This document shows positions 1-32,000 of a stretch of DNA of 32,000 nt, piece by piece (the stretch's first letter is position 1; every line of letters begins with the position of its first letter). Where the stretch lies: positions 6,873 through 38,872 of the forward strand of contig QIGN01000126.1 of assembly GCA_003228955.1 (NCBI GenBank), read 5' to 3'. A model generated the notes under the pieces. The model saw only the letters and a list, made by a program, of their open reading frames with translations, did not search any database and was not told the DNA's origin. Source of the DNA: Hyphomicrobiales bacterium (GTDB lineage Bacteria > Pseudomonadota > Alphaproteobacteria > Rhizobiales > Methyloligellaceae). Made by a program: the position numbers and the translations under genes.

Positions 1-930
1 GTGAGTGTTGGCACCGATATTACGTCGCTGAAAAAGAGCCAGCAGCGGCAATTGAAGAGTGAGGAAGAACTCAAGGCAACCATCACCGATCTTCGCCATT
101 CGCGGCGCGAGCTGGAGCAGCAGAAGCAGCAACTCGTCGATCTGATGGAAAAATATGCGACGGAGAAGAACCGCGCCGAGGCCGCCAACCGTACAAAATC
201 GGAATTCCTGGCCAATGTCAGCCATGAATTGAGAACACCTCTCAACGCGGTCATCGGTTTCTCCGAAATCATGAAAAACGGTTTGTTCGGCCCGGTGGGC
301 AATCCGAAATATGTTGAGTATGCCCGCGACATTCATGAAAGCGGGAAATACCTTCTGGAAGTCATAAATGACGTCCTTGATATGTCCAAGATCGAGGCGG
401 GGCGCATCAGTCTTGACATCAAACCGCTGGACACCGGCGAGATTATAGATGACAGCATCCGCGTTGTCGCACCGGCCGCGGCGGAACGCGCAATCGAGGT
501 CAAGCGCGCCGGGCTAAAGCAACTCAAGATGCGTGCCGACAAGCGCGCCGTGAAGCAAATCCTGCTGAACCTGCTTTCCAATGCGCTGAAGTTCACACCC
601 AGGGACGGAAAAGTAACGGTCAGGCTCACCAGGGCCAAGGGGCACGCAAAGATAACGATTGCCGATACCGGCATTGGTATCCCTGAGTCTGAACTGGGCA
701 AGCTGTGCCAGCCCTTTGAGCAGGTGGAAAACCAATTGACCAAGAGCCACCGGGGCAGCGGCCTCGGTCTGGCAATCTCGCGTTCTCTGGTGGAGATGCA
801 TGGCGGAAAATTCGAGATCAAAAGTACCGAGGCCAAAGGCACGACAGTTATTTGCCATCTACCGCTCAAACCAATTCTGGTTGACGATGCAGAAGGCGCG
901 GAGGGGAATGCCGCGGATGATAATGCCTGA
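1..930 (+). CDS. Sensor histidine kinase, C-terminal part (coiled-coil linker + HisKA + HATPase_c; PleC/DivJ/PdhS-like). The 5' end lies outside the window
   Basis: ORF is open from base 1. H-box FLANVSHELRTPLNAVIGFSE, N-box LLNLLSNALKFT, G1 DTGIGI, G2 GSGLGLAISRSL. KYVEYARDIHESGKYLLEVINDVLDMSKIEAG resembles the cell-cycle kinase family. Confidence 0.85.
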   Translation: MSVGTDITSLKKSQQRQLKSEEELKATITDLRHSRRELEQQKQQLVDLMEKYATEKNRAEAANRTKSEFLANVSHELRTPLNAVIGFSEIMKNGLFGPVGNPKYVEYARDIHESGKYLLEVINDVLDMSKIEAGRISLDIKPLDTGEIIDDSIRVVAPAAAERAIEVKRAGLKQLKMRADKRAVKQILLNLLSNALKFTPRDGKVTVRLTRAKGHAKITIADTGIGIPESELGKLCQPFEQVENQLTKSHRGSGLGLAISRSLVEMHGGKFEIKSTEAKGTTVICHLPLKPILVDDAEGAEGNAADDNA

Positions 931-18847: not shown

Positions 18848-19252
18848 CTACCATACCGAAGCGCAAATGAACCACACATGAATAAGGTTGCCCTTACTCT
18901 CCCGCACCCAGGCCGCGCCCGCCTTCATCCACCGCAGATAACAGACAGGTTTCAGGCGGAGCCCCAGTTTACGTTTCGCTTCAGCGGCGCTCTCCTGGCA
19001 CTCATTACGGGATGCAAACACGAACTCCGTGATACCGATGAGCTTTTTGTTCCGCATCTCATAAACGACAATGACCCATACAGGACGCAGATCTACAGAA
19101 GGGTTGCTTTTCTGCTGAGTCACACCGGCACGCGGCTCTTCGGGAAGAGCCGCACGTGCTTTGCGCACGGCAATCACACCGCTCCACAGCGCGACGATAA
19201 CAGCCGCCACAAGCGACCATTTCACGGCTTCGCGGATATCATCTCCCGTCAT
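18848..19252 (-). CDS. Hypothetical membrane-anchored protein (last gene of the lysis cassette)
   Basis: Trimmed to ATG 19252, which overlaps the o-spanin stop (ATGA). One N-terminal TM (WSLVAAVIVALWSGVIAV). No recognisable domain. Confidence 0.45.
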   Translation of the reverse strand: MTGDDIREAVKWSLVAAVIVALWSGVIAVRKARAALPEEPRAGVTQQKSNPSVDLRPVWVIVVYEMRNKKLIGITEFVFASRNECQESAAEAKRKLGLRLKPVCYLRWMKAGAAWVRESKGNLIHVWFICASVW

Positions 19253-19485
19253 TTCTGATCCTCGCAGATTGCATCCCAGGCGGCGTTGTGTCCGCGCAAT
19301 TGCGCGATTGTCTCGCGTGTGTCGTTTTGAGCTGAGAAGGTGATGGGGGAAAATGCCACGCATGCGCCGCTAGTGCGCATCGCGGTTGTTCGGATCGTTG
19401 CGCAGCCCGTCAGGATCGTCGCGGACAGAACGGCGAGCGTCAGTGGCCTTACGCAACATTTTATGGTCCTGGGAAAGCTGTTCAT
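19249..19485 (-). CDS. Candidate o-spanin (Rz1-like outer-membrane lipoprotein)
   Basis: MNSFPRTIKCCVRPLTLAVLSATILTGC lipobox (LTGC). Short mature part with two further Cys. The gene begins in another frame inside the i-spanin candidate and extends past its end. Confidence 0.55.
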   Translation of the reverse strand: MNSFPRTIKCCVRPLTLAVLSATILTGCATIRTTAMRTSGACVAFSPITFSAQNDTRETIAQLRGHNAAWDAICEDQK

Positions 19486-19591
19486 TTTCAGCTTCCACCT
19501 GGCCAAGACGCCGTTGCCTGCGGCCGGCGAATAGCCTCATGATTGCCGCGAGAACCTGGATGACGGGGCCAAGAAGTTTCAGCCATGTCAT
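19370..19591 (-). CDS. Candidate i-spanin (Rz-like; N-terminal TM + charged coiled region)
   Basis: 73 aa with TM LKLLGPVIQVLAAIMRLF followed by RRQRRLGQVEAENEQLSQDHKMLRK. ATGA overlap with the preceding holin-like gene. Confidence 0.5.
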   Translation of the reverse strand: MTWLKLLGPVIQVLAAIMRLFAGRRQRRLGQVEAENEQLSQDHKMLRKATDARRSVRDDPDGLRNDPNNRDAH

Positions 19592-19776
19592 TCTTGATCA
19601 CTGGCTGAACCGCCGACTTCAGGCAGGAATATCGCCAGCACGGAAAATGCTCCGGCGACCGCGCCGAAGATGGTCATCCATTCAGCCTCGGTGAAACCCA
19701 TGAAGTGAAGGCTTGCAAGAAAACCTACAATTCCCGCATAGGTGCTTGGCTCCGCCAGTCTTTTCCAAATGTTCAT
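19588..19776 (-). CDS. Holin-like small membrane protein (two TM segments)
   Basis: Trimmed to ATG 19776 (MNIWKRLAEPSTYAG), 1 nt after the endolysin stop. TM segments YAGIVGFLASLHFMGF and WMTIFGAVAGAFSVLAIFL. Confidence 0.55.
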   Translation of the reverse strand: MNIWKRLAEPSTYAGIVGFLASLHFMGFTEAEWMTIFGAVAGAFSVLAIFLPEVGGSASDQE

Positions 19777-19777
19777 T

Positions 19778-20308
19778 TTAGCTTCTCCTTTCCATTTCCA
19801 GGGCATCCGCGAGGACACCGTTCACACGGGCCGTCCAGCCGCGGCCAAATGTCTTCCAGGTCCGCAAACGCTGGAGAAAACTCCTGCGCCTCACGATGAG
19901 ACGCCGGATGATTGTCTTGGGATGATGGCGCGCGACGGCCGCAAGGGTCATGGGACCGACAATGCCGTCAGCCCGGGCCCCGGCAACGCGCTGAAGTGCC
20001 TTCGCAGCACGGGCAACGCCTGAATTCACCGCGAAGTCGAAAACGGCATAATCGACGCCCGAAGGGAGCTTGTCCCCCAGGACGCCATCCCAGTAGCGGG
20101 CGCGATAAATTCGTGCCACTTCACTCCGCTTCAGCGCCCGCACTTCGGATTTCGGTAATCTCCGCCACGGCCTGACACCCCGCCATGCGGCCAGGGTCCT
20201 GCGGGTGATGCCGAGATTTGTGGCACCGCCTGGATCAAGAGGGTGGTCCACATACCCGCCTTCATGTGCGAGCACCAGGGCCAGACCTGCCCTGAAGTTT
20301 TTTTTCAT
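19778..20308 (-). CDS. Endolysin: glycoside hydrolase family 108 domain + PG_binding_3 domain
   Basis: LVLAHEGGYVDHPLDPGGATNLGIT (GH108 signature with catalytic Glu) and C-terminal DYAVFDFAVNSG...LQRVAGARADGIVGPMTLAA. Start is ATG 20308, preceded by GGAGAAAAAGAA. Confidence 0.85.
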   Translation of the reverse strand: MKKNFRAGLALVLAHEGGYVDHPLDPGGATNLGITRRTLAAWRGVRPWRRLPKSEVRALKRSEVARIYRARYWDGVLGDKLPSGVDYAVFDFAVNSGVARAAKALQRVAGARADGIVGPMTLAAVARHHPKTIIRRLIVRRRSFLQRLRTWKTFGRGWTARVNGVLADALEMERRS

Positions 20309-20320
20309 TTCTTTTTCTCC

Positions 20321-20350
20321 AATAAAAAAGCCGCCTCGGCTCGAGGCGGC
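20321..20350 (-). terminator. Rho-independent terminator (minus-strand sense) 13 nt upstream of the endolysin start
   Basis: Perfect 9-bp GC-rich stem GCCGCCTCG / CGAGGCGGC (20330-20338 / 20342-20350) with a 3-nt loop. On the minus strand it is followed by TTTTTTATT (complement of 20321-20329). Confidence 0.7.
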
Positions 20351-20444
20351 GTTCGTCAATGAACCACTAGTTTTCTCAGATCGTCAGGGCTTGGGTCCGG
20401 CCCGCGGTCGTTTCACCAATAGCCAAAGCCGGCCCACGCCCGGT
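20343..20444. repeat. Direct repeat copy R1 (orphan 3' fragment of the small membrane-protein gene plus its downstream sequence)
   Basis: Aligns to 21712-21813 at a constant offset of 1369 nt without indels; 89/102 identical by hand alignment. On the minus strand it still reads GVGRLWLLVKRPRAGPKP-stop. Confidence 0.85.
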
Positions 20445-20537
20445 ATGGCCTCCCTTTCCAGATTCAAACTTTTGAAGTAAACGACAGTCCGGTGCACTGC
20501 TGTTTAGACCTCTCAGATCGCGGGCAATACAATCCGG

Positions 20538-21713
20538 ATGTCTTATTTCATTAAGCGAGCTGCTTATTTCGGATACAGACTTCAGTCCGTTGAAAACCGC
20601 TTATCCGAACTGGAGAAATATAACGCCGCCAGTCTCCCAAGTTCCGGAAATCCTGTTGCTCTTGATCTACCAAAAAAACCTCTTGTCGGGGCCTGGCAAC
20701 GTCTCGACCATTTTGCAAATTACCACCGTGCCAGAGCTCTTCTGAGTCTTGAAAATCTCTATGTCGGCTTTGATGCTGGGCGCCGCGGCAGGGGCTCTCT
20801 TATGCGCTATGATGGCGACTGGCACGAGCTGTTCAGTCGTCAGGGCATAACCGAGATTGTGACCCTCTGCCGCCATAACGGTGAAATCTGGTTTGGCGCA
20901 ACCTCATTACGCGACGGAGCGTCGCTCTGGCGAGGCGATGGCCAGCACTTCGAAATGGCGGGGCAATGGCCCAGGTTTTTCTCCGTTGCCGCTCTTGCCA
21001 GCTTTGACGGAAAACTTTTCTGCTCCCTTGTGCCTTCAACGAAATCCGAAACGGCTGCGCCAGTTCTCATCTTTGACGGGCAATGGAACGATGTATTGAA
21101 CGATCATCCCTACCAATGCATTTATGATCTTCACCCTCACAAGAAACACCTCTGTGGCGGAACCGTCGGCGCCGGATGGTTCGGCGGGCATGTGATCGAT
21201 ATTCTTTCCGGTCGGGTTATCGGTGGCGATGGAAACAACGGGAGCTGGAACCATCAATCTACCATACTTCGCCTTTGCTCACTCGGAGATACCCTTATTG
21301 CAACGGGCAATCGTGAACCCGCAGCAGCAGGAAATCACTCCAACATTTGGTCATATGCCGGCAAAGCGTGGAAACCGGTCCCCCTGCCACCACGGGGGTT
21401 TCAAGGACTTTACAGTTTCAATGCTGTGCATCCTTTCAGGGATCATTTGATAGTCGGCTGTGGCGGGCGTCCAGCTGGGCAAGCTGCGATCTTGTGCTTG
21501 TCGAGGGATGGCTGGACGCAAATCGGTGGAACAGGCCTCAATAACTCATGGAGCCCGAACGTTTATCGCCGCATGAATGCGCCTCTCGCCAACGGCTCGC
21601 AGAGCGATTACGTTTACAATTTCTGCGAACATGACGGCGCTTTGATCGCGGGCTTTGGCGCGTCACCTGGTTGCGGTCAGGTTTGGCGGTTTAAACCGGA
21701 CTCCACGGCGTGA
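20538..21713 (+). CDS. Hypothetical protein with Kelch-like / beta-propeller-like repeats (moron-type insertion). The only plus-strand gene in the phage-like region
   Basis: 391-aa ORF. About seven ~45-aa units with recurring patterns (YDGDWHEL, GEIWFG, SLWRGDGQHF, FDGKLFC, IFDGQWNDV, IWSYAGKAWKPV, LSRDGWTQIGG, GQVWRF). No signal peptide or TM. Visibly lower GC than its surroundings. Confidence 0.65.
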   Translation: MSYFIKRAAYFGYRLQSVENRLSELEKYNAASLPSSGNPVALDLPKKPLVGAWQRLDHFANYHRARALLSLENLYVGFDAGRRGRGSLMRYDGDWHELFSRQGITEIVTLCRHNGEIWFGATSLRDGASLWRGDGQHFEMAGQWPRFFSVAALASFDGKLFCSLVPSTKSETAAPVLIFDGQWNDVLNDHPYQCIYDLHPHKKHLCGGTVGAGWFGGHVIDILSGRVIGGDGNNGSWNHQSTILRLCSLGDTLIATGNREPAAAGNHSNIWSYAGKAWKPVPLPPRGFQGLYSFNAVHPFRDHLIVGCGGRPAGQAAILCLSRDGWTQIGGTGLNNSWSPNVYRRMNAPLANGSQSDYVYNFCEHDGALIAGFGASPGCGQVWRFKPDSTA

Positions 21714-21813
21714 AGCGGCGTTCGTCAATGAGCCGCTAGTTTCCTCAGATCGTCAGGGCTTGGGCCCGGCCCGCAATCGCTTCACGAATAACCAAAGCCG
21801 GCCGAAGCCCAGT
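21712..21813. repeat. Direct repeat copy R2 (3' end of the intact 63-aa ORF plus 41 nt downstream)
   Basis: See R1. The same peptide EAAFVNEPLV.SDRQGLGPAR.RFTN.QSRP appears in two plus-strand shadow ORFs (20205.. and 21655..). Confidence 0.85.
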
Positions 21814-21944
21814 GCAACGCCGCATAAAAGCATTATTGAAGTCAGAAACTGGTTCAGACTGCCAAGCCACGATGCCCACGCCGGAGAGGCAATGAGCGTT
21901 GCGGCAATTGCAGAGTCGATTTTCCCGGTTGTTGTGTGTTCCAT
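21753..21944 (-). CDS. Small membrane protein, class II holin-like (two TM segments, basic C-terminus)
   Basis: 63 aa with IAATLIASPAWASWLGSL and FLTSIMLLCGVALGFGRLWLF, then KRLRAGPKP. Its C-terminal peptide is conserved in the R1 fragment with both synonymous and non-synonymous changes. The SD is weak. Confidence 0.45.
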   Translation of the reverse strand: MEHTTTGKIDSAIAATLIASPAWASWLGSLNQFLTSIMLLCGVALGFGRLWLFVKRLRAGPKP

Positions 21945-21981
21945 AATTTTGAATGGCTATCCATGTTTTCTGTCATTCTGC

Positions 21982-22008
21982 GGTGCCCAAAACCGGGCAC
22001 CATTTTAT
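21982..22008 (+). terminator. Candidate plus-strand intrinsic terminator
   Basis: Stem GGTGCCC / GGGCACC (21982-21988 / 21995-22001) with a 6-nt loop, followed on the plus strand by ATTTTAT. No U-tract in the minus-strand sense. Confidence 0.4.
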
Positions 22009-22095
22009 GCCGCAAGATCGATCCTTTAAGATACCGCCGATGCCAAGCAGCATCTCAAGGGGGATTGTTATCTGTGTCATGGCGCGTTCCCTGCT

Positions 22096-22620
22096 CTAGT
22101 ATTCCACGCCGAACGACGCGCATTCGCGGTTGGTCTTGGCGCTCAGCACATTGCCCGTGCCCGAAACATCGCCGGAGTTGAACCGCTCCCAGATATTGGC
22201 GGCGGAGACGTAATCCATTGTCTGGATGTCGCCGTGATAGAGGGCGGGCAGGAAGTTGCCGCTTGCGGGAATGGTGTAATTCGCGGCGAGGTTGAACAAT
22301 TCCTCGCCGGTCCCGCCGTGATTGATACCGGTCTGCGTGTGCATCACGTCGAAGGAGTTGGCGCCCTGATATTGCAGAATGTGCATCGTGATGCCGGAGC
22401 GGACCTCGTTCATGTTGATGATCCATTTGAACACCGTCGACCCGTTGGTCAGATATCCCGCCGGCGACAGCACATTCGTGGCGGGCACGAAGACGGCGTT
22501 CGCCGCACCGAAGACACCATTGTTATCCGCTGGCGCGGCCATCTTCTGCTGCACGCCGGTGGCCCCGCCGCCGCCCGCCGCCCGCCGCCGCGCGGCGCAA
22601 AGCATCGCGCCCAAACTCAT
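22096..22620 (-). CDS. Hypothetical protein (possible distal fibre or receptor-binding component)
   Basis: Track ORF 22096..23088 trimmed to ATG 22620, which overlaps the upstream stop (ATGA). The 156 upstream codons overlap another, better ORF and are Arg/His-rich junk. No recognisable domain. Confidence 0.55.
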   Translation of the reverse strand: MSLGAMLCAARRRAAGGGGATGVQQKMAAPADNNGVFGAANAVFVPATNVLSPAGYLTNGSTVFKWIINMNEVRSGITMHILQYQGANSFDVMHTQTGINHGGTGEELFNLAANYTIPASGNFLPALYHGDIQTMDYVSAANIWERFNSGDVSGTGNVLSAKTNRECASFGVEY

Positions 22621-23057
22621 TGCAGCGCCCGCACGGTCATGGATTGCTGGCCGCCTATATTGGTGACGCAGACCTCGAATTTGTCGCCATTTGTGGTGGT
22701 GAATTTTGCGGTTTCTGCTTCGTCGAAGCCCGAGGCGGTAATCGCCCCGGCACTTGCGTTGTTGGTGGCGATGCAGATGTAACCGCCTTCCTCGGTCGGC
22801 GCGGCCCATGTGAAGATACCGCCATTGGTCAGTGTCTTGACCGCTCCTGTGGAGGGTTCCGGCGTCGTGGTGCCGGAGGATACGGTGCCGAGGGCCTGCG
22901 GAACCGACTTGCCCGAATTTATGGGCTGCTTTTCTGTCTCCAATTCGTCCAAAGCCGTTTTTGCATTGGTCGCGGATAGCCCGGAGGAGGCATTGTCGTA
23001 GGTAACGCTGGCGGCAGTGGTCCCCGCCAAAGCATCCGATGATACAAATCGAGCCAT
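22617..23057 (-). CDS. Hypothetical tail-fibre-like protein
   Basis: Trimmed to ATG 23057 (TAATG overlap with the upstream stop). The N-terminal VTYDNASSGLSATNAKTALDELE motif resembles fibre or spike N-termini. Ser/Thr/Gly-rich middle region. Confidence 0.55.
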   Translation of the reverse strand: MARFVSSDALAGTTAASVTYDNASSGLSATNAKTALDELETEKQPINSGKSVPQALGTVSSGTTTPEPSTGAVKTLTNGGIFTWAAPTEEGGYICIATNNASAGAITASGFDEAETAKFTTTNGDKFEVCVTNIGGQQSMTVRALQ

Positions 23058-23362
23058 TAGGCTGTCTCCTCTGGTCCATAGACGACAACTGAGACGCCGG
23101 CTGCGCTCGCCCGCGCGTAAAGTTTTTCGCCTGCGGTCATCCATATTTGCGTGCGTTCAAGAACGCCTGCTGCACCGAGAGTGACATCAAATTCAATCCA
23201 GTCCTTCACCGCAGGCAGTGCGCCATCCGTCACCGCCAGCCGCACGTCGGCTGATTGCGTGCGGGCGCAAAAGGCGACATTCACGCTGGCCTTTCTGCCC
23301 GTTGGAACTACATAGAGTTCCGTATCCGTTGCCGCCGCGAGGTCGGCCGCTCCAAGTGGCAT
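23057..23362 (-). CDS. Hypothetical small protein (beta-rich), fibre module
   Basis: AAGGAG lies 8 nt upstream of ATG 23362 (MPLGAADL); the ATG at 23368 is too close to the SD. No recognisable domain. Confidence 0.55.
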   Translation of the reverse strand: MPLGAADLAAATDTELYVVPTGRKASVNVAFCARTQSADVRLAVTDGALPAVKDWIEFDVTLGAAGVLERTQIWMTAGEKLYARASAAGVSVVVYGPEETA

Positions 23363-23380
23363 ATGCATCTCTCCTTAGTT

Positions 23381-24088
23381 TTAGTTGGCTGCCCAAAAAA
23401 GCATGGCGCCAAGTCCTGCGGACCCACCGCCGCTGATGGTTGTATTGGGGAATGTGACGCCGCCCGTGGTCCGGTCGATCACGATGGCTTCGCTCCAGTT
23501 GACGCCGTCGGCGCTTACCTTGAAATGATAGTCGTCATCGCCGGTCAGACCCATCTCGGCTCTCCCGGCGGCCCCGGTTTGGAACAGCAGGCTGGCGGTG
23601 TCTGTGGCAGCACTCTTGTTGATCTTTAACTGATGCCCGGCGCCTTCGTGATTGAGCAGAACAGCCGGACTTGAAACGGCCAGCCTGTTTGTCAGATCGG
23701 GCGTGGAATTGATGCCAAGGGTATCCAGATTGCTGATGGCCCCCATGGCCGCCAGCGCATCCACCCAGGAAGATCCGTCCCAGGTAATAAGTGAATCTTC
23801 GTCGTCGACCCAGCATAGCCACCCGGCTTTAGGTGTATAATATGCCCATGCGCCGTCCTGCCATGCGGCAATGCTAGTATCCTGGCCAAGCCAGACCCCG
23901 CTTGCGGCGCTTGCAACAAGATAGCGATCACCCTCTAAGGGACCCGCTGGCGGAACACTCAGATCACGGTCGATCACGGACAGTTGGACCAGTGTGTCCA
24001 GTCCGCGAAGGGCCTCATTGTGGGTCACATGCTTTTGTGCCTGGGCCGCCTCGATGAATGGCAGGCCGAGATTGGCCGAGTTAGACAT
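23381..24088 (-). CDS. DUF2793 domain protein (GTA/phage fibre-associated)
   Basis: MSNSANLGLPFIEAAQAQKHVTHNEALRGLDTLVQLSV...GDRYLVA...AWQDGAWAYYTPKAGW matches the DUF2793 pattern commonly found after g15. ATG 24088 overlaps the g15 stop. Confidence 0.8.
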   Translation of the reverse strand: MSNSANLGLPFIEAAQAQKHVTHNEALRGLDTLVQLSVIDRDLSVPPAGPLEGDRYLVASAASGVWLGQDTSIAAWQDGAWAYYTPKAGWLCWVDDEDSLITWDGSSWVDALAAMGAISNLDTLGINSTPDLTNRLAVSSPAVLLNHEGAGHQLKINKSAATDTASLLFQTGAAGRAEMGLTGDDDYHFKVSADGVNWSEAIVIDRTTGGVTFPNTTISGGGSAGLGAMLFWAAN

Positions 24089-27000
24089 GAATTTGCGCTT
24101 CCCTGCGTTGTCCGCGCCCATATGCGGCGCTCAGCTGATAGACATTGATGTTGTAAGTGGACTGGGGTGTGCCCCAGTCGGCAATCTGGTCTGCCTCGCT
24201 ATAGGTCACGCTCATCACCTCGCTGGCGAGCGTACGTTTCACTAACGCACCATTCAGAATGTCGACCACATAGCGCTCGGTATCTTCTGCCAGAGGAACT
24301 TCCGACGTTTCCCAGCTGTCTCCGCCAAGCCGCGTGCGGCGCACCCACGAAATCACGACATCGTTGCCGGCGGGCGCGGCCCGGATGTGAACCGGGCTCA
24401 ATGGACGCAAACCAAGGCCGGAGAAGGCGCGAACCTGGTCCTGATAGGAGGCATGGCCGATATCCCGGCTGATGGGCCCGTATTTCCAGTTGAATTCGAG
24501 GGCGATCTCATCGGCCGTCATATCCACCTGGGCAACGGCTGAATCGAGAAACACAAAGCGTGCGCCGGCGGGAACAGGATCAGCCATCGCTTGCTCGGTG
24601 CCGGCCTGTCCGCGCAGCAGGAAGGACAGCTCATATGTTGATGGCGCAACCAGCGTGGCATCGCGAAACTGGAACACCTCCCAGTCGCTAGCCGGATTTT
24701 CGATGGCCGCCGTGTTTGCACCGCCGAGCAGGGCCAGTTCGGTCACCGACTGAAGGTCGCCATTGTCGAGGCGCACCCGGCAGATATTCGCGCGGTCAAA
24801 CCGGCTGGTGGGTCCCGATGAGAAATCCAACTCGCTCACTCCGAGCGTTGCGGGCGCGGTCGCCAGCGCCTTGACGACGAAGCCGGTGCTTTCCGGGGAC
24901 CGGTAGAAGGCAACCGCGCCGGGCCACGGCGACTGGTACGCGGACACATACCCGGCATGGGCTTCTTCATCGCCGCGCAGCAATGGCAGGTCCATGAATG
25001 TCGCCAGGGCCTGGCCGTAGACTGCAGGCGTGGCTTGTGGCGCATTGCGCAGCGGCGTGCGCAGCGCGGTAAAGACTTCCGGTTCGATGGAGCGTGCTTC
25101 GAGTTCCTTGTCTACTCCTTCCCTCATCTCAATGATTCGCAACGGCAAGGTCTGATTTCCAACCTGAAGCGAAACCAGATCCGTCGGCTCCAGCGCCATG
25201 CGGCTTGGCGGCAAGGCAAAACTGGCCCGTTGCCGCGCGGTCCAGGCTTCCTGCAGCCAGGATTCGGCCATGGCCTGGGCCTGGGCCTGGGCCATCACAA
25301 CCGGCACGCTGGCGGTCGATACCCGTTCGGAGCGCACCGCGAGACGGCGCGCCTCGACAGCCGCCTGCCGGTATTGCGTATTGCCGTCGATATAGGTGAG
25401 CTTCGCCGAAAGCGGCAGTTCAGTTTCCTGACCGCGCGTTATTTCAAACAACTCGCGCTCTTTGCCGCGATCAACCAGATCGTCGGCGACAAGTTGCGCG
25501 GCCGTCCCGCCGGCGCCGCGATGCCTGAACTGAATGAGGCCGCCGGACTCGTAGCTGTCGAAAAAGAAGGCCAGCTCAAGGCTCTGCAGCGCCTCGCGGG
25601 CGGACATGATGCGATCAATCACATAGCCGTCGAGATGCCCGGTGAGCTGCGCCGCCGAATGGCGCGCGAAGCCATAATCGTTCAGAATTTGCGCAACGAC
25701 AGCCGGCAGCGGCCCGCCCGCGGCCCGGCCCGTCAGCCAGTGTCCGAACTCCCAGTTGCCCCCGTCCGACCAGACATCGAGCGCCAGGGGAAAGGCCGGA
25801 TAGGGCCGCGCATCCCATGTGTAAACATAGAGGCGGGTAATATCGACCATCTCGCCGCCAAAGATCGACGATGCCGGGTTCGAGCCGGCGACATAATCAA
25901 TATGAGCGGGATCGAAAAAGTCATAGAAAGACTGAATGTAGCGCCGCTGAATGAGATCATCGCGGGTGGTTCTGGAAAAGTAAGGCGTCTGCGACTCCGA
26001 ACTTTTCGGGTCGATAAATACATTCGGCTGATTGGATCCCTTGTCGACCGCCGGGCAGCCAAGCTCGGTGAACCAGATGGGTTTCGATTCCGGCACCCAG
26101 GGCGTCGGCGTACCCGATTCTACACCGCCTGGCCGGTTGAAATGCTGGTTCTGCCACCAGGAACGGATATCCTTGAAGCGGAACACCCACGGCTTGGCGT
26201 GAGCTCCGTCGGTGATTGGGGACCGCGTCTGAGAGGTACGATCCGCATCACTGGCGTAGAACCAGTCATAGCCCTCACCGCCGAAAATATTTCCTTTAAG
26301 ATAATCGAAATCATGGATAGAGGAGGCGCCGGCGAGCCGATCCGAATGAGCCTCGCCGTCGCGCCAGTCGGACAACGGCCAGTAAACGTCAATGGCGATG
26401 GCGTCGATATCCGGCGATGACCATAAGGGGTCCAGATGGAAGGTGACATCGCCTGAGCCATCGCCAGGCTGATGGCCGAAATATTCCGACCAGTCGGCCG
26501 CGTAAGTGACTTTGGCGCCGGGGCCGAGTATGGATTTTACATCGCTGGCGAGCGCGACAAGCGCATCCACGAACGGGTAGCTCACAGCCCCGTCCCTCAC
26601 CTGCGTGAGGCCGCGCAATTCCGAGCCAATGACAAAGGCATCGACACCACCGGCCGCCTGACACAGATGCGCATAGTGCAGCACCATACGGCGCAGACTC
26701 CATTCGGCCGGGCCCGAATAACTCACGCTCTGCCCGGTGACGGCAAAGTCACCCGGCACCGCTGTCCCGACCAGATTTGAGACCTGGACTGCGGCGGCAG
26801 CCGTTTTATCGGGCGAACCGGGCTGACCCGCTGCCGGGTCCACCGTGATACGGCCCCGCCAGGGGTAGACCGGCTGGCTTGCCGCACCGGTATAGGGGTC
26901 GATCAGGGCGTTGCCATCCGGCACATCCATCATCACGAAAGGCGTAAACGTCACCGCAACACCGCGCGTATTCAGGTCCTGTATAGCCGAGACGATGGAG

Positions 27001-28073
27001 TCATCAGAAGGCGTGCCGCCGAAAGCGGGACGCCCCTCATGGGTTGAAATCAGATGGGCGCCCGCACGGCTCGTCCCGCCAACGCTCCAGGTCTTGGGAA
27101 ATGTGACCTTGTTCTGGATTTCCACGCCGGGGCGCAGCTCGCACTGGCCGGCGCGCAAGTCACTGCCGAACCAGCTGACGAAAAGCGACGCCGCGCCAAC
27201 ATTGGGAAAGGCTTCCTGAAGCTGATTGATGGCGACATTCCAGTCGGTCCCGCCTTGTGCGGAATGAACATTCTCGGTGACTGTGGCGCCGCCGCCCGCA
27301 TCGCGGACAATTTCCTCGCTTTCATAGACGAACTCACCCGAGGCCGGGATGATTGTTATGGCCCTGACGGTGTCCTCGAACGTGTCGACGGTGCGGAACA
27401 CTTCAAAATTCAACTGCGGCAGCCGGTTGCCGAAGCGCGCGAGCGCCATGCGCTCAAACACGACATATGCGATCCCGCGATAGGCGGGCGCGTTCCCTGC
27501 CCCCTCCTTGGTTTCCATGAGGCTGTCGGGCTGCTGGGTATCGCTTCCCCGGTAAACCCGGATGGTGAAATCCGATTGATTGAGTTCCTTGCCATCGGCC
27601 CAGATGCGGCCTATCCGGGTCACTTCGCCTTCGCAAATGGCATAGGCGATATTGGCGAAGTAATGATACTCGATCTGCGTGGTCTGCTGTGGCCGGCTGC
27701 CACCGCCTCGACCGCCGCCGCCGAGACCTTTCCCGCCGCCGGATGCGGCCTGTGTCGTGGTCTTGATGACCTCCTCTTCAAAATGTGTTGCCCAGATGAG
27801 CTGCCCCGGCAGGCGAACCCGTCCATAGCTGCGCGCAATATGCCCCCCTTCCGTCGAGGAGGACACCTTCAGGTCGGATAGGCGCGCGCCTTCCTGCTGG
27901 CGCTGCTGGCCCGAGGGAGCGAACAGGGCCTGATCGATTACGCTGCCCGCGATCGAGCCCAGAGCCGTACCGATCGACGCACCTGAAAGGGCCGTGCCCA
28001 GTACGGACAGCCCAGAGGGCAAGGCCGCTCCGCCGACTGCGGCTCCAACCGCGCCAAGCGCCAAAGTTGCCAC
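24081..28073 (-). CDS. RcGTA g15-like host-specificity / baseplate hub protein (GTA TIM-barrel-like domain + phage-tail_3 domain)
   Basis: 1330-aa ORF with a glycine-rich N-terminal segment, a central TIM-barrel-like region (FVIGSELRGLT, WFTELGCPAVDKGSNQPN) and a position after the g14 homologue. GTG start. Confidence 0.92.
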   Translation of the reverse strand: MATLALGAVGAAVGGAALPSGLSVLGTALSGASIGTALGSIAGSVIDQALFAPSGQQRQQEGARLSDLKVSSSTEGGHIARSYGRVRLPGQLIWATHFEEEVIKTTTQAASGGGKGLGGGGRGGGSRPQQTTQIEYHYFANIAYAICEGEVTRIGRIWADGKELNQSDFTIRVYRGSDTQQPDSLMETKEGAGNAPAYRGIAYVVFERMALARFGNRLPQLNFEVFRTVDTFEDTVRAITIIPASGEFVYESEEIVRDAGGGATVTENVHSAQGGTDWNVAINQLQEAFPNVGAASLFVSWFGSDLRAGQCELRPGVEIQNKVTFPKTWSVGGTSRAGAHLISTHEGRPAFGGTPSDDSIVSAIQDLNTRGVAVTFTPFVMMDVPDGNALIDPYTGAASQPVYPWRGRITVDPAAGQPGSPDKTAAAAVQVSNLVGTAVPGDFAVTGQSVSYSGPAEWSLRRMVLHYAHLCQAAGGVDAFVIGSELRGLTQVRDGAVSYPFVDALVALASDVKSILGPGAKVTYAADWSEYFGHQPGDGSGDVTFHLDPLWSSPDIDAIAIDVYWPLSDWRDGEAHSDRLAGASSIHDFDYLKGNIFGGEGYDWFYASDADRTSQTRSPITDGAHAKPWVFRFKDIRSWWQNQHFNRPGGVESGTPTPWVPESKPIWFTELGCPAVDKGSNQPNVFIDPKSSESQTPYFSRTTRDDLIQRRYIQSFYDFFDPAHIDYVAGSNPASSIFGGEMVDITRLYVYTWDARPYPAFPLALDVWSDGGNWEFGHWLTGRAAGGPLPAVVAQILNDYGFARHSAAQLTGHLDGYVIDRIMSAREALQSLELAFFFDSYESGGLIQFRHRGAGGTAAQLVADDLVDRGKERELFEITRGQETELPLSAKLTYIDGNTQYRQAAVEARRLAVRSERVSTASVPVVMAQAQAQAMAESWLQEAWTARQRASFALPPSRMALEPTDLVSLQVGNQTLPLRIIEMREGVDKELEARSIEPEVFTALRTPLRNAPQATPAVYGQALATFMDLPLLRGDEEAHAGYVSAYQSPWPGAVAFYRSPESTGFVVKALATAPATLGVSELDFSSGPTSRFDRANICRVRLDNGDLQSVTELALLGGANTAAIENPASDWEVFQFRDATLVAPSTYELSFLLRGQAGTEQAMADPVPAGARFVFLDSAVAQVDMTADEIALEFNWKYGPISRDIGHASYQDQVRAFSGLGLRPLSPVHIRAAPAGNDVVISWVRRTRLGGDSWETSEVPLAEDTERYVVDILNGALVKRTLASEVMSVTYSEADQIADWGTPQSTYNINVYQLSAAYGRGQRREAQIHV

Positions 28074-28507
28074 TATTCAACTCCTGGAAAAATGAAGGAG
28101 GCCGCGCAATGCCGGCGCCACCAGCTTCCAAAATGGACTTCGCAGGCGGGTCCATGTTCCATGGCGTGGATCATGGTGCCCTTTGTTGCCAGGATTGCCA
28201 TATGCTTGGCCATGGCTGCGCTCCTTAGTCTGAACACCAGAATGTCGCCAGGTTCGGCGGCTTGCGGTTCCCGTTCGTGCAGATGCCGGCGTGCGCCCAG
28301 CAACAGGGTTTCCGCCCCATTCCCTTCCGCCCAATCCGGCGTATAGGGCGGCATTGGCTCGGGCTCCGCGCCGCACAACTCGCGATAGATGCCGCGAACA
28401 AGCCCCAGACAGTCGCAGCCCGCGCCCTTAAGGCTTGCCTGTTGGTGATAGGGCGTGCCGATCCACTCGCGCGCCACCTCGACGACACGCACCCGCGAAA
28501 GACTCAA
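28073..28507 (-). CDS. NlpC/P60-family cell-wall peptidase (RcGTA g14-like)
   Basis: EWIGTPYHQQASLKGAGCDCLGLVRGIYREL (catalytic Cys) and HMAIL...IHA (His). TTG start is uncertain. Confidence 0.88.
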   Translation of the reverse strand: MSLSRVRVVEVAREWIGTPYHQQASLKGAGCDCLGLVRGIYRELCGAEPEPMPPYTPDWAEGNGAETLLLGARRHLHEREPQAAEPGDILVFRLRSAAMAKHMAILATKGTMIHAMEHGPACEVHFGSWWRRHCAASFIFPGVE

Positions 28508-29397
28508 GAAAAGAAGCTCCCGCCATCATTTTGCGGGTCGTCGCTGTTGGGATAGGACACGGCGAAATCATTGCCCGGGATGTGCGGGAAGCCGCGAAAA
28601 TTCACGGCGTTATTGAACTTGTCCCGGCAGGTCGAAAACTGTTTGTCACAACCGGCACTCGCCGCGAAAGCGTCGCCGACGGCAATGGGCTGGCTCATGC
28701 GCTGCCAAAGCTCGATGGTGACCGTTGTGTCGGCCTTTGTGTGGAGCTTGATCTCCATTTTCTGAAGCGCGTTCGCACCGCTGGTCCAGGTGAGAAGACC
28801 GCGCGTGAACCAGTCACTGGTGAAGGCGTCAAGGCCACTCACTGTCACCACGCGTGCGCCATCGATCTGAGCAACGCTGCCCGTACCCTTGAAGGCGGCA
28901 AGTTCGTGATCGACCGTACAGCGCGCATCGCCCAGATCCGCGTCGCAACCAAACTGGTAGAGACGGCCCTTGGGCTGCTGCAACTCATGGGCGAGACCCC
29001 GCACCTCGGCGCGGAATGAATGGCGCCCGCGCGTCACTTCTCCCAGATGCCCGGCGCGGATGAGTAAGCGCTGCCCGGTATCGCCCCAGTTAACCCGGAA
29101 GATTTCGACTTCAGCGCCATCGAACAGACCCGCGGCCAGATCGCCCTCGTTCAGGGTGCCGGAACGCAGCACGCTCTCCACATCGAGATTATCCACACCG
29201 AGGCCGACCGTGCTCTCGACGTCACTCGCCGTGAACCCGCTCGCCGCTTCGAATGTGGTGCCGTCGAAAACGAGATCATAGTCGTGATCGGTAAAGCCAA
29301 GCGTGACGCCATCGGCGCGAATGATACGCCAGCACCAGCACAGGGTCGTCGTGCCGGTATCCAGATGCGCCTGCAACCCGGTGGGTAGCACCCTCAT
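28504..29397 (-). CDS. DUF2163 / BR0599-family tail protein (RcGTA g13-like)
   Basis: LQAHLDTGTTTLCWCWRIIRADGVTLGFTDHD and C-terminal GCDKQFSTCRDKFNNAVNFRGFPHIPG motifs. ATGA overlap with g12. Confidence 0.9.
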   Translation of the reverse strand: MRVLPTGLQAHLDTGTTTLCWCWRIIRADGVTLGFTDHDYDLVFDGTTFEAASGFTASDVESTVGLGVDNLDVESVLRSGTLNEGDLAAGLFDGAEVEIFRVNWGDTGQRLLIRAGHLGEVTRGRHSFRAEVRGLAHELQQPKGRLYQFGCDADLGDARCTVDHELAAFKGTGSVAQIDGARVVTVSGLDAFTSDWFTRGLLTWTSGANALQKMEIKLHTKADTTVTIELWQRMSQPIAVGDAFAASAGCDKQFSTCRDKFNNAVNFRGFPHIPGNDFAVSYPNSDDPQNDGGSFFS

Positions 29398-30032
29398 AGT
29401 CTGATCTCCACTACCGGAATGTTCTGAATTTGCCCGGCCTCGAAGGTCGTGAGGTCGATTTTGAGCTCATCGGTATCAAAACGGACGGGCACATCGAACT
29501 CGAACCCGGCCGTCACCTGCACGCCAACGGCAGGCTCTTTGCCCGGCACGAAGGTGACGATGCCCGTCGTGGGATCGACGATATAATCTGTCGTTTCGGT
29601 TTGCGCAGCACCGTCAAGCGCCATCAGAACCGTGCCGGAGACGGGCTTGGTGATCGCCCGCGCATAGGGCGCGAAGGACCCGCCATAGGTCTTGATCAGC
29701 TGGAACGCCGCCGTCGTACCATCGCCCGCCCCCAGAAGCTGATCGGTAAGGCTTGGAGTATCCTGCGGAGGACCGGATTTATTATCCGTCCGGTCGCTCC
29801 AGCGGAAGCCGTAGAGCCGCCCGCGCCGCTCCTCGAAAAACCCAATGACATCATGGAGATCGTTGCGCGTTTTGACACCGTATCCCGCATTGTAGCTGCG
29901 CCGCGAGTCGGCCCAGCGTGTGTTTCGCTCTTCATGCCCCGAGCCCAGAACAATCACCTCCGTGCGCCGTTCAGGCCCGCCGGAAGACGCAATGGAAATT
30001 CGCGTGGGGAACCGGATTTCGTGGAAATTCAT
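29394..30032 (-). CDS. DUF2460 / TIGR02217 distal tail protein (RcGTA g12-like)
   Basis: MNFHEIRFPTRISIASSGGPERRTEVIVLGSGHEERNTRW and GRLYGFRWSD motifs. Confidence 0.9.
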   Translation of the reverse strand: MNFHEIRFPTRISIASSGGPERRTEVIVLGSGHEERNTRWADSRRSYNAGYGVKTRNDLHDVIGFFEERRGRLYGFRWSDRTDNKSGPPQDTPSLTDQLLGAGDGTTAAFQLIKTYGGSFAPYARAITKPVSGTVLMALDGAAQTETTDYIVDPTTGIVTFVPGKEPAVGVQVTAGFEFDVPVRFDTDELKIDLTTFEAGQIQNIPVVEIRL

Positions 30033-30044
30033 GCGTGTTGCTTT

Positions 30045-30635
30045 CTAAAGATTCCGTCCGCCGCGCGAGACGGCGCGGTTGAGCATGGCCGCCACTTGTG
30101 ACTCTGAGCGCCGGAAGCTCTCGGCATCCGGTGTCGTCACGTTGAAATTGATGGTCACCCCGCCGCGCCCCTCGGATCGCACGCCAAGACGCCCGTCGCT
30201 CCCGCGCGCCAGCGGTAAAATCGCTTCCGGTCCCGCTTCCCCCGCAAGCCCCGTGCGCCCGCCCGCGAGCGGAAACGTGGTCGGCGAGGCGATGACACCG
30301 CCACGCGCGAACGGGACCGGAGTGCCACGGGCCAATACGCCGCCCTTCTGAAACCCGAGCGCGCGCGTCAATGCGCCCGTCAGGCTGCCGCCGATGGCCT
30401 TGCCAAGCGGGTTGATCGCCGCCTTGAATGCGGTGCGCGAGAGCGACAGCGCCAGACTTTTCGCCACGTCGGAGAGCTTCTTGCCCCTCACGGCCGCATC
30501 GGTGAAGGCGCGCGTGAGCGAGGAGCCGAAGCTGCGCCCGGCACGGGCTGCCAGGTCCATTTCCCTGCGGGTCTCGGCGACGCCCTGGCGCAACCGTTCA
30601 AGGTCGCCATTGTCGCGGAACGAAAACTCTTCCAT
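30045..30635 (-). CDS. Short tail tape measure protein (RcGTA g11-like)
   Basis: 196 aa with a helical N-terminal half and a Gly-rich C-terminal half (FARGGVIASPTTFPLAGGRTGLAGEAGPEAILPL). Located between the chaperones and g12. Confidence 0.85.
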   Translation of the reverse strand: MEEFSFRDNGDLERLRQGVAETRREMDLAARAGRSFGSSLTRAFTDAAVRGKKLSDVAKSLALSLSRTAFKAAINPLGKAIGGSLTGALTRALGFQKGGVLARGTPVPFARGGVIASPTTFPLAGGRTGLAGEAGPEAILPLARGSDGRLGVRSEGRGGVTINFNVTTPDAESFRRSESQVAAMLNRAVSRGGRNL

Positions 30636-30820
30636 CAGGTCTCCTGCTCGATTGATTGATCCGGATAACGGCCCATGAGCGCGCCGAATTCATGCTGGGA
30701 TATGGGCGCGGCCGCCCAGGCGGCGCCGGTATGTCCTTCGACTGCGGCATTCAATTCGGACATGCTCATGGACCAGAAATGCGCAGGAGGGAGGCGCAGA
30801 ACGCCAAGGCCGAGCGCCAT
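30635..30820 (-). CDS. rcc01693-family protein (RcGTA g10.1-like). Probably the C-terminal part of a g10-g10.1 frameshift fusion
   Basis: MALGLGVLRLPPAHFWSMSMSELNAA...LMGRYPD. The family-like sequence (DPIDWKRL) continues upstream of the ATG in the same frame, with no start codon there. Confidence 0.75.
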   Translation of the reverse strand: MALGLGVLRLPPAHFWSMSMSELNAAVEGHTGAAWAAAPISQHEFGALMGRYPDQSIEQET

Positions 30821-30843
30821 GAGGCGCTTCCAGTCGATGGGGT

Positions 30844-31257
30844 CTATGTCGCCGTTATGCCCGTCTTGTGCTCCGGCGCTGACACCGGAGTCTGAGGCGG
30901 CTTTCCCACGGGGTCTGACGCCCCCTCCCCGCCAGATGTCTCGATCTGCGCAACACCGAATGTGGCCGTCAGCAATGCCGCAACGATTTCCACGAAGCCC
31001 GCCGCGCCGCCCTCCGCCTTCATGGCGGAGACGGCGTCATCGGTGATGTCATAGCCTGCGCCGCGCAGGCCCGCGCCAAGGATGCGGATGGTATCGCGCG
31101 CGGTGATGCGCCCCGCTTCGAAGCGCTCCACCACGCCCAGCATGTCATCTTCGCCAAAGGCGTGTTCGAGCTCGGCAAGCGCGCCAAGGGTGAGGCAGAG
31201 GCGATAGCGCTTGCCGTCAAGTTCGGCCTCGATTTCCCCGCGATGACTGTTGGCCAT
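30844..31257 (-). CDS. GTA tail assembly chaperone (RcGTA g10-like)
   Basis: Trimmed to ATG 31257: MANSHRGEIEAELDGKRYRLCLTLGALAELEHAFG is the typical g10 N-terminus. Confidence 0.85.
   Translation of the reverse strand: MANSHRGEIEAELDGKRYRLCLTLGALAELEHAFGEDDMLGVVERFEAGRITARDTIRILGAGLRGAGYDITDDAVSAMKAEGGAAGFVEIVAALLTATFGVAQIETSGGEGASDPVGKPPQTPVSAPEHKTGITAT
30871..30907 (-). promoter_or_regulatory. Candidate programmed -1 ribosomal frameshift signal (slippery heptamer + stem-loop)
   Basis: On the minus strand, G GGA AAG at 30907-30901 is in the g10 zero frame (codons 118-119). Ten nt downstream is an 8-bp stem with tetraloop, CTCCGGTG-TCAG-CGCCGGAG (30890-30871). The -1 frame is the g10.1 frame. 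Confidence 0.55.
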
Positions 31258-31285
31258 ATCTGTCCGGCTCAAGCGGCGGTGAAGG

Positions 31286-31654
31286 TCAGAGCGCCGGCGG
31301 ATTCGAGCGCCAGTCATAGGTCACCTCGCCGTCGTGATTTCCGGCGAACTCCAGCGCGGTGATCTGCATCGCGCCCTGAACCGTACCGAAGTCCGGCACA
31401 ATCACCTGCCAGTCGCGGATCGTTCCGTTGAAGAAGAGGCCGCGCACGGTCTCGTCCGACGCGGCGTCTTTAAAGATGCCGCTCCCCGCCACCCGCGCCG
31501 ACTTGATGCCGCCGCCGGTGAGCAGCTCGCGCCACTGCCCGGCACTCTCGGAGTCGGTCACATCGACACTCTCCGTCCCCGCAACAGTCGTGAACGCGCC
31601 AAGCCCGTCGCTGTCGACCTTCAACAGAAGGTCCTTGCCCTTTTGAGCAACCAT
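31286..31654 (-). CDS. Major tail protein, TP901-1 family (RcGTA g9-like), apparently frameshifted near the 3' end
   Basis: MVAQKGKDLLLKVDSDG...VDVTDSESAGQWRELL...GSGIFKD...DWQVIVPDFG...ALEFAGNHDGEVTY. The expected C-terminus LALESAGALTFTAA-stop is encoded in the +1 frame (31313-31269). Good SD (GGAGATAATTGA). Confidence 0.85.
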   Translation of the reverse strand: MVAQKGKDLLLKVDSDGLGAFTTVAGTESVDVTDSESAGQWRELLTGGGIKSARVAGSGIFKDAASDETVRGLFFNGTIRDWQVIVPDFGTVQGAMQITALEFAGNHDGEVTYDWRSNPPAL

Positions 31655-31694
31655 TCAATTATCTCCGTGATGTTTGGGTGGGTGCCGCATGGGC

Positions 31695-31725
31695 AACAAA
31701 AAAGCGCCCCGGGATGGGGGCGCTT
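31695..31725 (-). terminator. Rho-independent terminator (minus-strand sense) between g8 and g9
   Basis: Stem GCGCCCC / GGGGCGC (31704-31710 / 31717-31723), extendable by two A-T pairs. On the minus strand it is followed by TTTTTTGTT. Sits in an unusual ~105-nt gap in an otherwise overlapping gene array. Confidence 0.6.
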
Positions 31726-31760
31726 GGGGTGTTCTTTAAGTTAAAGAAACTGTCTGGACC

Positions 31761-32000
31761 CTAAGCCGCCAGCGGCTCCGTAACCGCCCGGTACCGCACG
31801 ATCCCATGATACGTCTCGCCGTCCGGGTCTTGCCTCGCTTCGGAAAATTCATGGCGCAGATTTACCAGCGCATGATCATTTACCGTAACGGCTGCATCAT
31901 GCAGCGCCTGGCGGATCGCCTCAATGATTTCGTGGGTTTCTTTTTTGCCGCCGGCGCGGGACCAGACATGCAGGGTCAGAATATGCTCAAGCCCGTCCTC
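31761..32000 (-). CDS. DUF3168 tail-terminator/head-tail joining protein (RcGTA g8-like), C-terminal 79 codons. The start lies outside the window
   Basis: My manual translation of the reverse strand gives EDGLEHILTLHVWSRAGGKKETHEIIEAIRQALHDAAVTVNDHALVNLRHEFSEARQDPDGETYHGIVRYRAVTEPLAA-stop. This ORF is not in the supplied track because it has no in-window start. Confidence 0.8.
   Translation of the reverse strand, partial: EDGLEHILTLHVWSRAGGKKETHEIIEAIRQALHDAAVTVNDHALVNLRHEFSEARQDPDGETYHGIVRYRAVTEPLAA

Follow-up and report, generated by a model that had tools for sequence, protein, structure and literature searches.

Why does a lone gene of lower GC content, read from the opposite strand, sit between the lysis genes of an alphaproteobacterial phage-like element, and what might it do there? 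The question is raised by a 32,000-nucleotide (nt) stretch of a Hyphomicrobiales bacterium (contig QIGN01000126.1, positions 6,873 to 38,872; here, the window, with positions counted from its first letter). In it, an open reading frame (ORF) with an ATG start and 391 codons (20538 to 21713, plus strand; here, the target) interrupts a minus-strand element resembling the gene transfer agent (GTA) of Rhodobacter capsulatus (RcGTA). The target is a real, intact gene that is still under family constraint. The explanation that we favor, at a probability of roughly 0.6, is that it represents functional, horizontally acquired cargo, namely, a helix joined to a ligand-binding Kelch-type propeller, with its own promoter, lodged in the junction between the endolysin gene and TM63, a gene for a 63-amino-acid (aa) holin-like protein, in an RcGTA-type element.

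The first-pass annotation of this DNA, made from the letters and a list of ORFs, had described the target as the only convincing plus-strand ORF in the phage-like part. In substance this is correct, as the other long plus-strand ORFs are antisense shadows: those of at least 120 aa between 18.8 and 32 kb lie antisense inside minus-strand genes with strong Pfam support (for example, 24957 to 26420, 487 aa, inside g15). The four hand-counted GC samples behind the claim of lower GC content proved exact (0.442 at 20538-20657, 0.450 at 21061-21120, 0.583 at 21421-21480, and 0.633 at 26041-26100). The claim holds for the gene as a whole, with the qualification that the short samples exaggerate the contrast, the whole-gene GC content being 0.537. 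This value belongs to the lowest 1.6% of all 1176-nt windows in the 32-kb window and gives a z score of -2.1 against its phage-like part. The GC content at third codon positions (GC3) is 0.536, compared with a mean of 0.67 in 14 other genes (standard deviation, 0.055; range, 0.60 to 0.80). Recomputed over the whole gene, both measures thus differ from the surroundings, where the annotation had allowed that they might not. The 5'-to-3' GC gradient within the target is weak (r = 0.087; permutation P = 0.04), and a chimeric gene, considered on its account, was rejected, the trend being driven mainly by the AT-rich first 147 nt. Public gene calls differ on the start, placed by JGI at M89 (20802; 303 aa) and by NCBI at 20538 (391 aa), and NCBI has an unnamed record of the exact 391-aa protein. 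The longer form is the better supported, as the alignment with homologues begins at the helix.

The target is bracketed by a 122-nt direct repeat, whose copies are 83% identical (about 88% over a core of ~100 nt) and share an exact word of 21 nt, compared with a maximum of 13 in shuffled sequences. On the minus strand, copy 1 contains a remnant of the coding end of the 63-aa gene (...GVGRLWLLVKRPRAGPKP and stop, at about 20384-20440), which matches the end of the intact gene in copy 2 (...GFGRLWLFVKRLRAGPKP and stop). The similarity between the copies spans the hairpin and reaches the final five codons of the target ORF, whose present stop codon therefore lies in duplicated junction sequence. 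Because the repeat duplicates this junction and leaves a truncated remnant, the ancestral order was probably the 63-aa holin-like gene, the hairpin, and the endolysin, and from the repeat alone we infer the empty site, that is, the ancestral junction without the insert. The insert proper extends from about 20445 to 21691. We propose that a cassette made up of the 93-nt leader and the ORF recombined into the junction between the holin-like gene and the endolysin, duplicating that junction in the process. Because only three synonymous and three nonsynonymous codons differ between the copies, the repeat is compatible both with a duplication in place and with a copy that arrived with the insert from a related element. 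Taken together, the opposite strand, the outlying composition, and the direct-repeat scar lend good support to the first-pass proposal of a horizontally acquired accessory gene and point to a secondary insertion from a lower-GC source.

No transposase, integrase, tRNA, or meaningful inverted repeat was found near the target, no tRNA gene was available as a possible att site, and an Rfam scan of 18.5 to 24.5 kb returned nothing relevant. An invertible segment was also considered and rejected, with only a weak 25-nt inverted repeat (72%) and no invertase to suggest it. Regarding expression, the promoter-like site in the leader is a weak sigma-70-like match (two sites in the region, compared with 1.1 expected by chance), and no evident Shine-Dalgarno sequence precedes the target ATG. 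As the site ends 4 nt before the ATG and such a sequence is missing, the mRNA could be leaderless. Transcription of the target would start at its own promoter, in a direction converging on the late/lysis operon and independently of it. No terminator follows directly after its stop codon; the nearest plus-strand site lies 270 nt downstream, and a transcript ending at that hairpin (21982..22001) would be antisense to TM63. As a separate observation, the frame of the 63-aa gene runs on after its TGA into the long ORF of the endolysin (20311-20384 and 21692-21755, minus strand). In this post-stop stretch, followed as far as the repeat copies remain homologous, six of the eight codons differing between them are synonymous in that frame, a pattern that could reflect an upstream endolysin start, stop read-through, or chance.

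Relatives of the empty site were sought in several collections. A blastn search of 18.8 to 24.2 kb against phages and plasmids returned DUF2793 fragments only, and the 21-mer core of the repeat was absent from viral and metagenome contigs. The 160 loci with related endolysins reached at most 61% identity, and none carried the target or TM63; in a Shinella locus, DUF2793 was the sole shared feature. Opposite-strand genes occurred upstream of related endolysins at 22 of 125 loci, a count that is inflated by spurious high-GC antisense ORFs and was not used.

An AlphaFold model built from a 39-sequence alignment (predicted local distance difference test score, 93.7; predicted template modeling score, 0.90) places a helix at residues 2-31 (by DSSP), a linker at 32-50, and then 28 strands. 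These form seven four-stranded blades of ~48 aa each, with blade 7 closed by the N-terminal strand 51-55, which, along with weak Kelch profile matches, bears out the earlier reading of about seven Kelch-like units of ~45 aa. The helical N terminus read from the sequence is likewise recovered, with a heptad spacing of hydrophobic residues every 3 to 4 positions (F4-A8-F11-L15-V18-L22-L25), and its motif, Y.FYR...LENRL.ELE, is common to all close homologues. The lack of a signal peptide or transmembrane (TM) helix also stands, as Kyte-Doolittle hydropathy over 19-residue stretches peaks at 0.11 within the first 110 residues. With no hydrophobic segment and a high Cys content (nine residues, 2.3%), our best guess is a soluble, cytoplasmic protein.

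Furthermore, we ran the structure search that had been recommended, submitting the predicted model to Foldseek against PDB and BFVD. It returned generic propellers only, all at ≤16% identity and with TM-scores of ≤0.62. The PDB matches comprised LGI1 EPTP (seven-bladed; TM-score, 0.56-0.60), Sec12, the Kelch domain of Keap1, and BamB, with a probability of 1.0 to the Keap1 and KLHL Kelch domains; those in BFVD were phage propellers labeled "tail fiber," "hemagglutinin," and "outer capsid" (≤14% identity; TM-score, about 0.5-0.6). At the sequence level, the target matches no Pfam family even at E ≤ 1, and so no Kelch hidden Markov model (HMM), and no match was found in Pfam, PHROGs, NCBIfam, PADLOC, a PDB sequence search, or a phage tblastn search. 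Other family members show weak matches to Kelch_6 (6/39) and Kelch_1 (3/39), with whole-protein E values no better than ~6e-6, and several have subthreshold matches to Kelch_3. The family profile (A2) matches Kelch chains in PDB (KBTBD10, E = 1.2e-4; Keap1, ~5e-3), each over only two to three blades. From the model, then, the target is best described as a divergent Kelch-type propeller, with Kelch blade geometry and no match to the Pfam Kelch HMM.

With known Kelch propellers (Keap1, NanM/YjhT), the target shares the blade size and the pattern hhhhGG ... hxxYDGxxWxxh, in addition to the Foldseek and profile matches. In contrast, it has seven blades instead of the usual six, its family has its own N-terminal heptad helix and GG.G.NGSW loop insertions, and no Pfam Kelch match appears at any reported threshold. 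NanM, the sialic acid mutarotase, is six-bladed and periplasmic, whereas the target is seven-bladed and has neither a signal peptide nor a NANM Pfam match; the sole link between them is the presence of NeuB genes near two relatives of the target. The best structural matches, LGI1 EPTP and Sec12, share its seven-bladed topology at TM-scores of 0.5-0.6, but they are eukaryotic, functionally unrelated, and 8-11% identical, a resemblance at the fold level only. Finally, the blade C-strand LWRGDG of the target resembles the ELWxxDGT repeats of giant bacterial surface proteins, weak ELWxxDGT and Rax2 matches occur in relatives, and the family profile matches giant multirepeat proteins. However, these matches fall far below curated thresholds, and the target would be a single cytoplasmic propeller, not a secreted multidomain protein.

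The family to which the target belongs is narrow at close range and wide at a distance. A word-seeded search of 5.8 billion proteins matched only six clusters, one being the target itself as called from M89, and the close family amounts to about 10 clusters. Its homologues align over the full length at 37-49% identity with 75 invariant columns, and the target keeps 24/24 residues that are invariant in ten other close members. An exhaustive profile search, counted at 50% clustering, recovered 2,422 relatives at E ≤ 1e-3, 83 of them at E ≤ 1e-30. Some of these are single-propeller proteins (400-460 aa); others are giant multirepeat proteins, which reach 5,722 aa and as many as 20 matched stretches and in some cases also carry Big_9 or cadherin domains. 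Five of these giants (P0007, P0012, P0017, P0018, and P0023) measure 2,844-5,722 aa and contain 8-20 stretches matching the propeller profile, so that the same type of blade also occurs in very large multipropeller proteins, presumably at the surface. An N-terminal TM helix precedes the conserved helix in 42 of 80 single-propeller relatives, which are Cys poor (median, 0.66%), while the TM-less relatives, including the close subfamily of the target, have a median of 1.39%, compared with 2.3% in the target. This split fits exported and cytoplasmic versions of the protein. Among 185,579 species genomes, one homologue locus was found, in the metagenome-assembled genome (MAG) Alphaproteobacteria OFTM349 (L005, 10001-11231); its gene is frameshifted after about 75 codons, as a pseudogene or through an assembly error. 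Neither 2.9 million viral contigs nor 50,697 phage genomes yielded a homologue. The first-pass view of the gene as something undescribed thus holds insofar as no curated family covers it; it does not hold for the protein as a kind, a divergent Kelch-type propeller with detectable relatives in the thousands. The target adds to known kinds, Kelch-type propellers and moron-type cargo, from an uncurated family.

Searching for homologues and recording their surroundings, as had also been advised, yielded roughly eight independent contexts. All of them are chromosomal and contain housekeeping or glycan genes, and none is phage-like, defense-like, or mobile. The annotation had held that homologues in nonmobile contexts would speak against its proposal; this is partly the case, as all recovered contexts are core chromosomal with native GC content. 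The close relatives are stand-alone genes in core neighborhoods of marine metagenome contigs, syntenic within lineages, and their GC content equals that of their contigs; the two closest come from genomes of ~44-45% GC. One arrangement, syntenic between P0002 and P0003/P0159, runs from a DEAD helicase through the gene to a GmhA-like SIS isomerase-panC-panB-gcvPH. In another (P0010), the gene stands between infC-rpmI-rplT-pheST-aldo-keto reductase and lepA, with a locus of NeuB, sugar formyltransferase, MarR_EPS, RfaH/UpxY, and UDP-sugar dehydrogenase 2.6-7 kb off. In a third (P0008), it lies between Asn synthase-APS kinase-ATP sulfurylase-...-methyltransferase and secE-nusG-rplKAJL. Additionally, a distant TM-bearing relative (P0013) is located between a Wzy-type gene (Wzy_C) and a NeuB/aminotransferase/acetyltransferase/dehydrogenase cluster, and LamG, sulfatase, and a NanM-like Kelch protein surround the relatives P0154 and P0155. 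Two Planctomycete-like contigs (L006, 2790-10890; L007, 2382-10623) share a conserved five-gene arrangement around distant TM-bearing relatives, in the order FCD-family regulator, ~1,240-aa LamG_3 protein, alpha/beta hydrolase, propeller, and second LamG_3 protein, with a sulfatase and a NanM-like Kelch gene nearby in L006. The recurring glycan-gene neighbors are a lead, not proof. A literature search for morons of the Kelch/propeller type in phages, or for Kelch proteins encoded in capsule loci, returned nothing pertinent.

The closest parallel to such an insertion is the phage moron. Lambda bor is an opposite-strand moron gene beside the lysis cassette, and morons of the HK97 type were reportedly described by Hendrix and colleagues. 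Like these, the target is a single extra opposite-strand gene, probably between two otherwise adjacent phage genes, adjoins lysis genes, differs in base composition, and may have its own promoter. Unlike them, it has no terminator directly after its stop codon, it is marked by an unusually long (~100-122 nt) and diverged duplication of the junction, its host element resembles a GTA, not a typical temperate phage, and no related element lacking the gene was found. Judged by its arrangement and composition, the target could be classed as a moron in the structural sense.

How such cargo might act can be outlined from the model. The heptad helix probably serves for self-association or docking, and the conserved "top" face of the propeller, assigned by standard propeller topology, probably binds a ligand. 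On this candidate face, the inner strands begin with R64/R66, Y192/C194/Y196, R245, S293/N295, and Y358/Y360, and the loops comprise the B-C loops N258-R259-x-P261, GGRPAG, and GASxGCGQ together with two long family-specific GG.G.NGSW loops. The likeliest class of ligand would be a sugar, a nucleotide-sugar, or a glycan intermediate, favored because family members repeatedly adjoin surface-polysaccharide genes. RcGTA fibers bind capsular polysaccharide (PMC10218006), so a glycan-modifying cargo would, speculatively, make biological sense in this element, and it could alter the surface glycan used as a receptor by GTA or phage particles.

Several points weigh against this account of functional, ligand-binding cargo. 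Phage, plasmid, viral-contig, and metagenome collections held no related element lacking the insert. The promoter is a single weak consensus match, with no obvious ribosome-binding site. No curated family, solved structure, or characterized relative points to a specific activity, and the conserved central residues could be structural instead of ligand binding. The glycan association is post hoc and comes from ~5 contexts, in some of which the glycan genes are several kilobases off with housekeeping genes between. The distant TM-bearing relatives (23-29% identity) show it most strongly, and these may work in another compartment; the target's own neighbors in the window are not glycan genes. Going further, the helix-plus-propeller family might form an undescribed class that acts on or binds glycans or nonulosonic acids, with the captured copy remodeling surface polysaccharide and so controlling particle receipt or re-adsorption. 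We regard this as a long shot; if true, it would mean a conversion-like function carried by a GTA.

Among the alternatives, the one that survives best, while still unlikely, is that the target is a silent passenger, brought by a recombination accident into a decaying element, whose lysis operon was divided by the same event, and without a role there. The weak promoter match, the lack of a clear ribosome-binding site, and the disagreement of two gene callers on the start would all fit such an accident, as would the frameshift in the only homologue from the genome collection (the MAG locus). Moreover, the insertion puts 1.37 kb of antisense sequence between the holin-like gene and the endolysin, parting the two. 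However, the 391-codon frame is intact and every family-invariant residue is kept. The repeat copies differ by 12-17%, which suggests an arrangement of some age in which the ORF nonetheless shows no decay; this argument loses force if the insert brought the diverged copy with it.

A role in host interaction, superinfection exclusion, or defense, which the annotation had offered, found no support. In this scenario, which we consider improbable, the propeller would detect some component of an incoming phage, or obstruct it, and so protect against phages, superinfection, or GTA particles. The foreign composition and the classic accessory position, on the opposite strand beside the lysis cassette and near the end of the element, are what a defense gene might show, and beta-propellers are sensor domains in some immune proteins. 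However, no PADLOC-DB v2 family matched the target, four relatives, or two neighbors at E ≤ 1, the target has neither an effector domain nor a partner gene, and it is absent from the phage and viral collections. Furthermore, its homologues occupy syntenic housekeeping contexts of native GC content (pheST/lepA, secE-nusG-rplK, and panBC/gcv), not defense islands or mobile elements.

Less probable still, and by a clear step, is a place in the particle itself, as a structural or receptor-binding part with a coiled-coil stem and a propeller head. The target adjoins tail fiber genes, its layout is reminiscent of some phage receptor-binding proteins, and the BFVD search returned phage propellers. 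Nevertheless, those matches are generic in identity and TM-score, the target is compositionally foreign and opposite in strand to all structural genes, all of its relatives are chromosomal stand-alone genes with none in the viral or phage sets, and the signature of an invertible segment is missing. Lastly, a chance ORF in GC-rich DNA, as long spurious ORFs such as the one inside g15 are common in the window, is refuted by full-length homologues (to E = 1e-126), a highly confident fold prediction, and an opposite strand that holds no competing gene.

The element that received the cargo deserves description in its own right (Table 1). The first 18.5 kb of the window belong to the ordinary chromosome (GlnE, two two-component systems, DegP, CcmF, and CcmH), and the phage-derived element begins at about 18.8 kb on the minus strand, with the target in its lysis cassette near the chromosomal boundary. 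The endolysin probably starts at the ATG at 20308, with GGAG at 20319-20316, and its ORF is open up to a TTG at 20359; a match to the Rz-like spanin PHROG 1275 (1.9e-9) falls in the same cassette. TM63 has no Pfam or PHROG match, and only its own sequence was found among the 5.8 billion proteins; a holin role is inferred from its size, hydrophobic segments, and position. After g15, the series from g14 to g9 comprises NlpC/P60 (g14), Gp84_N/BR0599, DUF2460, the tape measure, GTA-gp10, and the tail tube. The tape measure ORF, of 196 aa, matches only the C-terminal end of ~1,000-aa tape measure families. The window ends at g9, and head and terminase genes lie outside it.

For g9, g10, g12, g13, g14, and g15, the element matches RcGTA in both gene order and Pfam families. 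The tape measure is 196 aa here versus 216 aa in RcGTA g11, and g14 is 144 aa versus 150 aa (PMC7296036). It also carries a DUF2793 gene, DUF2793 being a domain of the RcGTA tail fiber Rcc00171 (PMC5026251). In contrast to the R. capsulatus GTA, whose accessory loci are dispersed (PMC5026251), the fiber gene and the lysis cassette here lie directly downstream of g15, and the propeller gene has no counterpart in RcGTA. With its g9-g15 synteny and very short tape measure, the host element can be regarded as RcGTA-like. The stretch from 18848 to 32000 joins the RcGTA-type tail cluster directly to the DUF2793 fiber, more fiber-like genes, and a complete lysis cassette and abuts ordinary chromosome; it looks like either a consolidated GTA or else a small phage whose tail is GTA-like. 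Between the fiber gene and TM63, overlapping ORFs of 330 and 175 aa in different frames (22096-23144, minus strand) are probably two real adjacent genes, a fiber-like one starting MARFVSSDALAG... and one of ~180 aa ending at 22096, neither with a Pfam or PHROG match. At the outermost end of the element, flanked by the spanins and a chromosomal response regulator, a 171-aa ORF (18848-19363, minus strand) has no family match in Pfam, PHROGs, or PADLOC.

Table 1. Coordinates of the target, its insertion scar, and the surrounding element in the window
Feature	Position	Strand	Description or basis
Target gene	20538..21713	+	391 aa; heptad helix, linker, seven-bladed Kelch-type beta-propeller; ORF, full-length homologues, AlphaFold model
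Amphipathic heptad helix	20541..20630 (codons 2-31)	+	DSSP; conserved across homologues
Seven-bladed propeller	20688..21698 (codons 51-387)	+	AlphaFold model, Foldseek, profile versus PDB
Blades 1 to 7	Residues 64-100, 106-144, 147-187, 192-230, 242-280, 293-330, 357-387	+	Model
Direct repeat, copy 1	20323..20444	.	Truncated 3' end of the 63-aa gene, hairpin, endolysin ribosome-binding site
Direct repeat, copy 2	21692..21813	.	Last five sense codons and stop of the target, 41-nt spacer, last 20 codons of the intact 63-aa gene
Unique upstream leader of insert	20445..20537	+	93 nt; GC 0.495
Promoter-like site TAGACC-17-TACAAT	20505-20533	+	Ends 4 nt before ATG; 9/12 positions
GC-rich hairpin and T-run, terminator-like	20330..20350	-	9 pairs, 8 G-C; just upstream of the endolysin ribosome-binding site
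Terminator-like hairpin	21982..22001	+	270 nt past target stop, beyond TM63; consensus match only
TM63, holin-like membrane protein	21753..21944	-	63 aa, two TM segments, charged C terminus; ORF; orphan
GH108 endolysin with PG_binding_3	19778..20308	-	PF05838, 1e-28; PF09374, 1.5e-8; PHROG 315, 3e-52
Holin-like ORF	19588-19818	-	76 aa, two TM segments; predicted from sequence
i-spanin-like ORF	19370-19591	-	73 aa, TM and coiled coil; predicted from sequence
Rz-like ORF with lipobox	19249-19506	-	85 aa; lysis cassette 19249..19818
Host element: fiber-like genes, DUF2793 fiber, RcGTA-type g15-g9	22617..32000	-	Pfam, PHROG
DUF2793 tail fiber gene	23381-24121	-	Pfam
g15	24081-28073	-	GTA_TIM/Rcc01698_C

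GTA-type elements are usually viewed as vertically inherited and conservative. If the explanation by moron-type cargo is true, this locus would provide a clean, datable case of how a host-type gene entered a phage-derived element, apparently a GTA-type one, through recombination at the element's lysis junction. Neither the capture nor the family overturns current understanding. Nevertheless, the locus flags a sizeable uncurated family of TM-anchored and soluble Kelch-type propellers that recur near surface-glycan loci, and it offers a well-folded, tractable orphan with a testable link to receptor glycans.

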